From IMG/VR virus record IMGVR_UViG_2531839668_000005: DNA of 30,815 nt. The stretch is one strand, 5' to 3'. The translations under genes and the position numbers were made by a program. Origin of the DNA: a virus. Its lineage: Duplodnaviria > Heunggongvirae > Uroviricota > Caudoviricetes. Positions 27,095-28,151 of this stretch are shown one piece after another. The notes under the pieces were generated by a model. The model searched no databases. It had not been told where the DNA came from and saw nothing but the letters and a program-made list of their open reading frames with translations. Each line of letters begins with the position of its first letter. Position 1 is the first letter of the stretch.

Positions 27095-27310
27095 ATGTCA
27101 AGCATCGCCGCATTTAGCCTGGGTAACCCAGTTGAACGTCTGGCAAGGGTTCTTAAAGAGAACCAGGACAAACTCAATCTTAGTAAAGATGGTTTTGTGT
27201 CCGTAGACTTGTCTAACAAAAGAGCAATGGATGCCATCAAGGCACAGATGGATAAGCTTGAAGGCATCAAAACGAGCACTGTAAAAGAGAAAACTAATAG
27301 AACCAGATAA
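27095..27310 (+). CDS. hypothetical protein (71 aa)
   Basis: GGGGGAG upstream of the ATG; stop overlaps the next ATG (TAATG). Confidence 0.4.
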   Translation: MSSIAAFSLGNPVERLARVLKENQDKLNLSKDGFVSVDLSNKRAMDAIKAQMDKLEGIKTSTVKEKTNRTR

Positions 27311-27480
27311 TGGCAACATTACTTTTAGCAGTGATTTTGGTTAGTGGTTTTATTTATGTAAACCTATCACTTTCAACAAGATACCGATATAAGCGTTCCA
27401 ACGGCTGGGACGCTTATTTTTTTGTGGCTGCCTGGGGTATCGTTTTTTTCTCCTTGGCGGTTTTTTCACCTTTATTTTGA
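27310..27480 (+). CDS. small hydrophobic protein (56 aa), or N-terminal membrane anchor of the next ORF
   Basis: Translated by eye (not in the track): MATLLLAVILVSGFIYVNLSLSTRYRYKRSNGWDAYFFVAAWGIVFFSLAVFSPLF; two hydrophobic segments; T7 and T6 runs near its 3' end. Confidence 0.35.
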   Translation: MATLLLAVILVSGFIYVNLSLSTRYRYKRSNGWDAYFFVAAWGIVFFSLAVFSPLF

Positions 27481-28151
27481 ACGTCAGCGGAGGGTTTCGT
27501 TGGCTGGCTAATGCCTTGAATCTAACACCTGACAGTTTTAACGGCATGTTGTCTTCATCGAAAGACAAACTTCAAAGAATAAATGAAATCAAACAGATAG
27601 CATGGGTTATGATTTCAATTGTCCTCGCTGCGATTTCAGGTTTTGGAAATAAGTTACGCACATCACGTGGAGATCGTCGCTGGGATGCCTTAGCTAAAGC
27701 TGTGGGTAATAACGCTTTCGAATCATTACTCATGGAAGCGTCCGCAAGACAGTTTCCGATCATAGCAACTCTGTCGTCTCGCAAAATCTATGTTGGTCTT
27801 GTTACTTGTCCGGCGTTAGAAAACGGGCTTTCAGAACACCTTGAACTTCTCCCGATGTTAAGCGGATATCGGGATAAAGATGATCTAACGATTAGTATCA
27901 CGACTAACTATCACCAACATTATCTTGATAGTGGTGTGATAAGTGGAATGTCTCGGCTTAATATCGAAGATTTCCGTGTGCTCATACCAAAAGATGAGGT
28001 TGAAACAATTTCGTTTTTTGATACTGAGACATATAACAAATTTAAAGAAAATGAAGCCAGGGATAGAAAGAACTGTCGAAAGATTGGTAGTAAAAGTGCA
28101 TCTTCGCGCAGCAAGCGTGCAGCAGATGCTGAGTCAAATGATCGTGCATGA
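27477..28151 (+). CDS. hypothetical protein (start uncertain: TTG at 27477 or ATG at 27546)
   Basis: Track ORF with one internal hydrophobic helix (IAWVMISIVLAAISGF); frame open upstream to 27393, overlapping the previous ORF. Confidence 0.4.
   Translation: MNVSGGFRWLANALNLTPDSFNGMLSSSKDKLQRINEIKQIAWVMISIVLAAISGFGNKLRTSRGDRRWDALAKAVGNNAFESLLMEASARQFPIIATLSSRKIYVGLVTCPALENGLSEHLELLPMLSGYRDKDDLTISITTNYHQHYLDSGVISGMSRLNIEDFRVLIPKDEVETISFFDTETYNKFKENEARDRKNCRKIGSKSASSRSKRAADAESNDRA

Follow-up and report, generated by a model that had tools for sequence, protein, structure and literature searches.

A two-gene membrane-protein cassette in the cargo hotspot of a P2-like prophage is a widespread candidate for phage defence

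The window analysed here, a stretch of 30,815 nucleotides deposited as IMG/VR record IMGVR_UViG_2531839668_000005, is a P2-like (Peduoviridae) prophage of Escherichia coli. In its cargo slot, the initial annotation described three translationally coupled open reading frames (ORFs), the last two perhaps a single membrane protein of about 280 amino acids (aa) broken by a frameshift. The three ORFs do lie where they had been placed, but the real unit is two genes, not three: a small gene for a soluble protein and a larger gene for an inner-membrane protein, which together we call the cassette. The elements of the block are as follows.

27095-27310, + strand: ORF1, 71 aa, with a strong Shine-Dalgarno sequence (GGGGGAG) 3 nucleotides (nt) upstream.
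27310-27480, + strand: ORF2, 56 aa, with a TAATG overlap with ORF1.
27477-28151, + strand: ORF3, 224 aa when read from a TTG.
27095-27310, + strand: gene 1, encoding the 71-aa soluble partner (WP_000094764.1; phrog_9843).
27310-28151, + strand: gene 2, encoding a 280-aa membrane protein (WP_000212611.1; phrog_3630), which appears as ORF2 plus ORF3.
27443-27449, + strand: a run of seven T (T7), one shorter than the T8 of the intact allele, to which the alignment with three relatives traces the apparent frameshift.

The frames of ORF2 and ORF3 are both open across three T runs (T7 at 27417-27423, T7 at 27443-27449 and T6 at 27461-27466). In the four-way alignment, the second of these is T7 in the window and in E. 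coli MIN9 and T8 in E. coli 98-3133, and when one T was restored, a single 280-aa ORF identical to WP_000212611.1 was obtained. In Klebsiella phage ST15-OXA48phi14.1, where the T run is interrupted (GTCTTTTTC), the allele is likewise a single 280-aa ORF, 80% identical. A megablast search of 5,426 complete E. coli genomes found the block in 52, of which 50 matched at 99% identity or above; gene 2 is 843 nt long in 49 of these 50, only MIN9 having 842 nt, and NCBI annotates the 843-nt allele as the single 280-aa protein WP_000212611.1. Homologues of gene 2 are also single proteins of ~240-340 aa, as seen in 57 of 57 from a word-index search and in nearly all of the best 150 matches of an exhaustive profile search. 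Purifying selection acts on the cassette: dN/dS was 0.035 over the whole repaired gene 2 (E. coli versus Klebsiella phage) and 0.23 for gene 1. The suspicion that the last two ORFs form one membrane protein was therefore borne out by the T8 allele, whereas the reading as three coupled genes was not; the TTGA "coupling" between ORF2 and ORF3 arises from the missing T.

The missing T has companions elsewhere in the assembly. Relative to E. coli O157:H16 98-3133 (NZ_CP051001.1), the 30.8-kb window differs by 2 single-nucleotide polymorphisms (SNPs) and 7 one-base gaps, and at all 7 gaps the base is missing on the window side, at runs of A or T.

5362, 15734, 15799, 18823, 18882, 21039 and 27443: sites of the one-base gaps relative to NZ_CP051001.1.

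The gap at 27443 is the sole indel within 7.8 kb. The seven gaps break five coding sequences that are intact in NZ_CP051001.1, namely those of a Rha-family regulator, a recombinase (2 gaps), a hypothetical protein (2 gaps), another hypothetical protein and gene 2. Seven A/T-run deletions against 2 SNPs are a signature of homopolymer under-calling, not of evolution. Judged from these sequences, the break in gene 2 is almost certainly an assembly artefact and not biology, and other "frameshift" or "pseudogene" calls in the window are likely to be assembly errors too. Homopolymer frameshifts in this assembly should thus not be taken as pseudogenes or phase variation, and a biological meaning of the frameshift is not supported.

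It is very unlikely that the frameshift is real and marks a recent pseudogene, or a T8/T7 phase-variable or programmed-slippage switch that yields separate products of 56 aa and ~211-224 aa. T8 tracts are prone to slippage, and the T7 allele recurs in an independent complete genome, MIN9 (NZ_CP069682), with other downstream cargo; NCBI annotates three hypothetical proteins at that locus. However, 49 of the 50 genomes carry T8, the other six gaps and the four other broken coding sequences bear the mark of assembly error, and the MIN9 assembly may carry an error of the same kind, its T7 being either that or an independent slip. Neither the window nor MIN9 offers evidence for phase variation. Moreover, the Klebsiella phage allele has an interrupted tract and the family does not conserve it, so that it is not a conserved slippery or programmed site; the slippery tract and the two-frame layout expected of programmed frameshifting are not kept in the homologues, which are single ORFs.

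The pairing of the two genes extends far beyond E. coli. A set of 80 loci with genes for relatives of the large protein was retrieved, one genome per species. Immediately upstream, in nearly all of them, is a same-strand ORF of 53-100 aa, which overlaps the start of the large gene by 1, 4 or 13 nt or ends a short distance before it. A hidden Markov model (HMM) of the small-protein core matched upstream of 64 of the 73 full-length large genes, a count that is partly circular, as about half of those small proteins built the HMM. The pairing occurs in Enterobacterales, Vibrio, Shewanella, Aeromonas, Pasteurellaceae, Pseudomonas, Neisseria, Snodgrassella, Advenella and Acidobacteria, as well as in sequenced phages and plasmids, and the small proteins align on a core of a strand, a Gly turn, a strand and a long helix (for example LNLSKDGFVSVDLSNKRAMDAIKAQMDKL). 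Sequence comparison thus indicates that the pairing is old. At E<=1e-3, the large-protein family comprises 2,889 representatives of clusters at 50% identity, 2,021 of them at E<=1e-10, and nearly all of the matches listed are full length. We are highly confident of the anatomy of the cassette, of the assembly artefact and of the conserved pairing.

Two observations concern the small protein itself. In Snodgrassella alvi, a lipoprotein-like signal (MKKIFGIMTGLLSC) stands at the start of the upstream small partner, which sets it apart from most homologues, and the small partner may act outside the cytoplasm in some lineages. In many NCBI and UniRef records, WP_000094764.1 and its relatives are named "multidrug ABC transporter ATPase"; the name does not fit a 71-aa protein that lacks any ATPase motif, and is a propagated mis-annotation.

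The product of gene 2 has hydrophobic segments at residues 1-23, 34-63 and 94-112. Between the first and second of these transmembrane (TM) segments, the loop contains four lysine or arginine (K/R) residues and no acidic ones, which indicates that the N-terminus faces out and that the C-terminal 170 residues are cytoplasmic. The predicted layouts of the two proteins are as follows.

Gene 2 product, N-terminal half: TM1 at 1-23, a cytoplasmic KR-rich loop, TM2 at 34-63, a variable periplasmic loop and TM3 at 94-112.
Gene 2 product, C-terminal part: a helical linker, an Sm-like beta-barrel at 151-236 and a basic C-terminal helix.
Gene 1 product: a helix at 12-22, a beta-hairpin at 27-29/35-37 and a long helix at 42-69, as predicted with a mean predicted local distance difference test (pLDDT) value of 74.

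The AlphaFold2 model of the large protein (pLDDT 76.6) contains three long TM helices, two linker helices, the barrel at 151-236 and a long basic C-terminal helix. Nine residues are invariant in 69 diverse relatives (Y36, K159, Y161, G163, P182, S185, G186, R188 and Y201), and all except Y36 belong to the barrel, whose motifs are SRKxYVG and LPxLSGYRDKD. In the model, the barrel is five-stranded, bent and preceded by a helix, as in the Sm/LSm/Hfq fold. At the sequence level, no Pfam LSM, Hfq or WYL match was found, and an hhalign comparison of the family profile with E. coli Hfq gave a probability of 0.4%, in what is a weak test. Foldseek against viral predicted structures returned nothing below E 1e-3, the model of the small protein had no significant structural neighbour, and searches of PDB sequences with profiles of both families gave chance matches only.

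The HMM and structure searches proposed in the initial annotation thus gave PHROG matches and a predicted Sm-like fold. Its statement that no family could be recognised holds in part. The large protein matches phrog_3630 (E 3.3e-99, over positions 1-270 of the 274-position model) and the small one phrog_9843 (E 1.4e-36, 1-66 of 66), so both are full-length members of families, and these are phage protein families without assigned function. Scans of both proteins against Pfam, NCBIfam and PADLOC yielded no usable match, and the same scans of 69 and 34 relatives gave only weak matches to DUF6338 (PF19865). In hmmscan, 4 of the 69 distant relatives matched DUF6338 (best E 2.8e-7) and the query itself did not. 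Among the rows of Table S5 of PMC13092281, an HHblits result aligns residues 131-240 of WP_000212611.1 with positions 120-211 of DUF6338 (94.3% probability, E 5e-4). The relationship covers only the linker-plus-barrel half of the large protein, and DUF6338, like the two PHROG families, has no assigned function.

Several RNA elements and candidate regulatory signals accompany the two genes.

27389-27423, + strand: a terminator-like element inside gene 2, a 12-bp hairpin (27389-27417) that runs into U7 (27417-27423).
28197-28226, + strand: an intrinsic terminator closing the cassette, GGCCCGCCAG-AACU-GGCGGGCU followed by UUUUG.
27040-27068, + strand: a candidate sigma-70 promoter found by eye, TTGAGG-17 nt-TAGACT, ~27 nt before the start codon.

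The intragenic element lies ~80-115 nt into gene 2 and has the sequence features of an intrinsic terminator, a stable G+C-containing stem with a U-run directly behind it in the sense strand. The hairpin (dG -16.8, z -3.15) encodes YKRSNGWDAYFF in the TM1-TM2 loop, and both stem and U-run are kept in relatives down to ~38-57% protein identity. At codons for conserved amino acids, the probability of codon identity is 0.85 in the hairpin stretch versus 0.40 elsewhere, and the stretch ranks at the top of 101 sliding windows for codon identity (Mann-Whitney p 2e-5), while the codon of the loop glycine is free to vary. In the hairpin alignment, 93% of cells are paired and 2 pairs are compensatory; these also change the protein (S to A with D to H in Aeromonas, S to A with D to G in Erwinia). 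The presence of G-U pairs places the structure in the sense RNA. Among terminator-like sites inside 73 homologous genes, 15 of 17 fall at the position of this hairpin. On these sequence features, the hairpin is probably an attenuator that holds full-length effector mRNA at a low level compared with the small gene.

The closing terminator is strong (dG -25.1 kcal/mol, z -5.3), and none of 200 shuffles was as stable. The promoter candidate is kept as TTGTGG-17-TACACT in 4 of 5 aligned relatives (the Klebsiella phage, Serratia L9, Citrobacter and Enterobacteriaceae MGYG), the fifth, Serratia inhibens, being too diverged there to judge. A consensus promoter scan listed no sense-strand promoter, and the candidate scores only 8/12, so that its assignment as the promoter of the cassette is weak. 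At 26976-26993, ~100 nt upstream of the small gene, the site AACTTAAGTTTAAGTAAC with the 8-bp palindrome ACTTAAGT is near-invariant across the six aligned relatives, the most diverged one among them, and may be an operator or another regulatory site for the cassette. Further upstream, a stable hairpin (26831-26867, dG -23.5) follows directly on a DinI-like gene. Relatives retain it, with both arms altered (TTGCTGGCGTC...GACGCCAGCAA versus TTGCGGACG...CGTCCGCAA); it has no clear U-run and is probably the end of the DinI transcription unit.

The surroundings of the cassette in the window, and the sites at which it occurs elsewhere, are as follows.

23825-26239: gene A, followed by a 62-aa ORF, the DinI-like gene and the two-gene cassette.
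28478-29497: a membrane and TIR gene pair downstream of the cassette.
29530-30630, - strand: a truncated portal gene, after the membrane and TIR pair.
28144-28260, + strand: a conserved 117-nt flank, common to hundreds of P2-like prophages without the cassette.
P2-like gpA-portal hotspot: the window, Klebsiella phage ST15-OXA48phi14.1 and Salmonella phages SEN4/SEN5.
P2-like prophage of Providencia: the cassette is the only cargo.
Prophage end beside the repressor (CI): a Shewanella prophage and Pseudoalteromonas phage C5a.
Between integrase and attP: Cronobacter phage phiES15.
Between tail genes K and I: a lambdoid Enterobacter prophage.
nin region, beside hok: a lambdoid E. coli prophage.
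IncC conjugative plasmids: Salmonella.
Islet of DinI plus the pair: Pectobacterium chromosomes.
Between a tail gene and the tape-measure gene: an Aeromonas prophage.

The cassette is a self-contained, horizontally mobile accessory operon, found in lysogenic-conversion and defence slots of various temperate phages and on conjugative plasmids. What follows it varies: in E. coli, the TM and TIR pair or, in MIN9, three unrelated hypothetical genes; in the Klebsiella phage, a gene for a SEFIR protein. In Table S5 of Rousset 2022 (PMC9122126), the pair is arranged with PIN_12, DUF262/DUF1524 or SieB genes. These varied downstream partners argue that the cassette is independent of the TIR pair and, together with the Providencia prophage, uphold the proposal that it forms a cargo module of its own. 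In distant loci, phage, housekeeping and defence genes (Ssp, MADS, Dpd and DISARM-type) all occur as neighbours, and no third partner recurs throughout.

The 117-nt flank behaves differently from the cassette. The query matched 703 E. coli records, of which 52 matched over most of its length, and 47 of 49 phage records (Klebsiella, Salmonella, Escherichia and Yersinia) matched only the 117-nt end, at ~86-96% identity. Judged from these matches, the flank is likely to be a recombination joint between cargo sub-slots, which fits modular swapping.

Other observations concern individual sites. In Pectobacterium (two loci, both at 6372-7819), DinI and the cassette form a 1.5-kb islet amid metabolic genes, with no other phage gene nearby, which resembles a leftover piece of a P2-type hotspot. 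In two Aeromonas prophages (loci L089, 7785-8765, and L018, 5728-6720), the pair lies between a UCP028589 tail gene and the tape-measure gene, which is the usual place of the tail-assembly chaperone, and no obvious chaperone pair is annotated there. A role as a tail-assembly chaperone, considered from this context, was ruled out by the three TM helices and by the location of the cassette, mostly outside tail modules. The portal gene of the window lacks its N-terminus, and in the near-identical genome the portal gene is followed by tail-fibre genes; the prophage is therefore rearranged or degraded on the portal side.

The gpA-Q region is a validated defence hotspot (Rousset 2022, PMC9122126, section 10), and the cassette pair was listed in that work as "hypothetical + hypothetical" and was not assayed there. 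According to Moura de Sousa 2026 (PMC13586616), every P2 genome has at least one of the two main defence hotspots occupied, and few pseudogenes of defence genes occur in P2 hotspots. Additionally, Table S5 of the DefensePredictor study (DeWeirdt, Mahoney, Laub, Science 2026; PMC13092281) lists WP_000212611.1 as a "Predicted novel defense gene" with a mean log-odds of 5.10 against a cut-off of 4, the score being a machine-learning prediction; the small partner was not found among the table rows listed. In the literature search, the accessions of the cassette were absent from the main texts searched and turned up in supplements only. Defence or exclusion is thus a reasonable guess, because the slots are defence hotspots and because of the DefensePredictor score, and the cassette is a real, widespread and uncharacterised defence candidate that has already been flagged computationally. 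The likeliest function is anti-phage protection of the lysogen, by superinfection exclusion or abortive infection, a reading that has in our estimate about an even chance of being correct.

We propose a putative mechanism along these lines. The 71-aa soluble protein of gene 1 is translationally coupled, through TAATG, to the 280-aa inner-membrane protein of gene 2, which would act as the effector. Sm and Hfq proteins assemble into rings of six or seven subunits, and by analogy with them the modelled Sm-like domain may allow the effector to oligomerise; once oligomerised, the effector would either disturb the inner membrane or keep DNA from entering. As its regulator, sensor or antidote, the small protein may act on the effector. 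The ratio of the two proteins would be set by translational coupling together with the hairpin and U-run ~110 nt into the effector gene, an element that would keep full-length effector mRNA scarce. A more specific version seems quite unlikely to us: a new immunity module in which a membrane-anchored Sm-like ring would be a nucleic-acid- or protein-triggered pore or a block to DNA entry, restrained by the small partner, with expression gated by the translated intragenic terminator. If that were true, the effector level would respond to transcription-translation coupling or to the antitermination of an invading phage.

Several points weigh against the proposed function and mechanism. WP_000212611.1 is absent from the 94 cloned and 42 validated units of Tables S6-S8 of the DefensePredictor study, in which 45% of the tested predictions were validated and the validation rate tracked the log-odds (PMC13092281). 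No PADLOC 2.0 model matched the query or the 69 relatives. No catalytic motif was found, so the chemistry of the effector is guessed from architecture only, and the AlphaFold2 models are of moderate confidence (pLDDT 74-77). The covariation in the intragenic hairpin is thin, the hairpin is confined to one clade with 17 distinct sequences, and it could be an element of mRNA stability or processing instead of a terminator. Finally, many distant members of the family lie amid housekeeping genes, so that conflict may not be the only role of the family.

Two other functions deserve to be weighed beside lysogen protection. In the first, which we regard as unlikely, the cassette would be a toxin-antitoxin-like addiction module in which the membrane protein is the toxin and the more abundant small protein the antitoxin, stabilising the prophage or plasmid, with any defence incidental. 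The layout is that of a type II toxin-antitoxin locus, with the small gene first, a stop/start overlap (TAATG here) and the larger gene second, and the terminator-like element within the large gene would lead to a surplus of the small product. The occurrence of the cassette on IncC conjugative plasmids and beside hok/gef in a lambdoid prophage would suit such a module, and so would its stand-alone islets amid housekeeping genes.

In the second, similarly improbable in our view, the cassette would provide a lysogenic-conversion function without phage conflict, for example a membrane channel or a stress protein that alters host physiology. Three TM helices with a cytoplasmic Sm-like barrel echo the core of MscS, and the large-protein family is big and often lies beside ordinary metabolic genes. 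Relatives of DUF6338 have been reported in biosynthetic clusters (PMC10433244), which would also fit a non-conflict function. For an MscS-type channel in particular, no PF00924 beta-domain match follows TM3 directly, and an hhalign comparison with MscS was negative, again in a weak test.

The last possibility concerns the neighbouring membrane and TIR pair. Some nucleotide-signalling systems have as their effector a TM protein with a small ligand-binding barrel, an example being Cap15 of CBASS, and the cassette and the TIR pair are adjacent on the same strand in one hotspot; even so, it is extremely unlikely that the gene 2 product is an additional effector or sensor of the membrane and TIR system and that the four genes form one system, as a strong terminator and a spacer of ~330 nt separate the two and the pair of genes 1 and 2 accompanies many other cargos or stands by itself, in nearly all cases with no TIR gene. 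The TIR pair itself encodes a membrane protein (138 aa) and a TM-TIR protein (200 aa), and matches the PADLOC TIR models SAVED_TIR (5e-11), PDC-S66 (5e-10) and ThsB-like. The AC1 system "2TM+1TM+TIR" (Rousset 2022) was rejected as an identity of the two-gene cassette. The TIR pair is also unlikely to be AC1: Rst_2TM_1TM_TIR is not among its PADLOC matches, no Rst model matched, and the start of the AC1 insert, the only part compared, looks unrelated.

If lysogen protection is confirmed as the role of the cassette, a widespread family (2,889 clusters at 50% identity) without homology to known systems will join the defence repertoire. Its make-up is unusual in that a three-helix membrane anchor carries an Sm-like barrel, the small partner is obligate and the effector gene contains a conserved terminator-like hairpin. 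An intact allele is available in 49 complete genomes, among them that of E. coli 98-3133, where the operon lies at 4459600-4460950 of NZ_CP051001.1.

Comparison with known systems places the cassette apart by sequence and close by architecture. Among the models of PADLOC-DB 2.0, which include Rst_2TM_1TM_TIR, Rst_3HP, Rst_Hydrolase-3Tm, Cap15, Kiwa and the Abi families, the 71-aa protein had no match and the 280-aa protein a chance-level match only (E 0.14), and 1 of the 69 relatives had a chance-level match to pAgo. The barrel has no sequence-level relation to the Sm/Hfq fold or to the WYL ligand-sensing domains of DriD, BrxR and CapW, and Sm/Hfq proteins are not fused to TM helices, whereas the barrel of the large protein is fused to three. 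Unlike Cap15-type systems, the cassette has no associated cyclase, and PADLOC and Pfam revealed no homology to Cap15, Rex, SieB or gp15. RexA/RexB of lambda, SieB of P22 and lambda, and gp15 of HK97 are likewise prophage-borne. Similar to these exclusion and abortive modules, the cassette is of the moron type, bounded by what would be a promoter and a terminator of its own. In it, an inner-membrane protein goes together with a soluble partner or a small, predicted cytoplasmic barrel, and its slots are of the same kinds, in the tail region, the nin region and the P2 hotspot.

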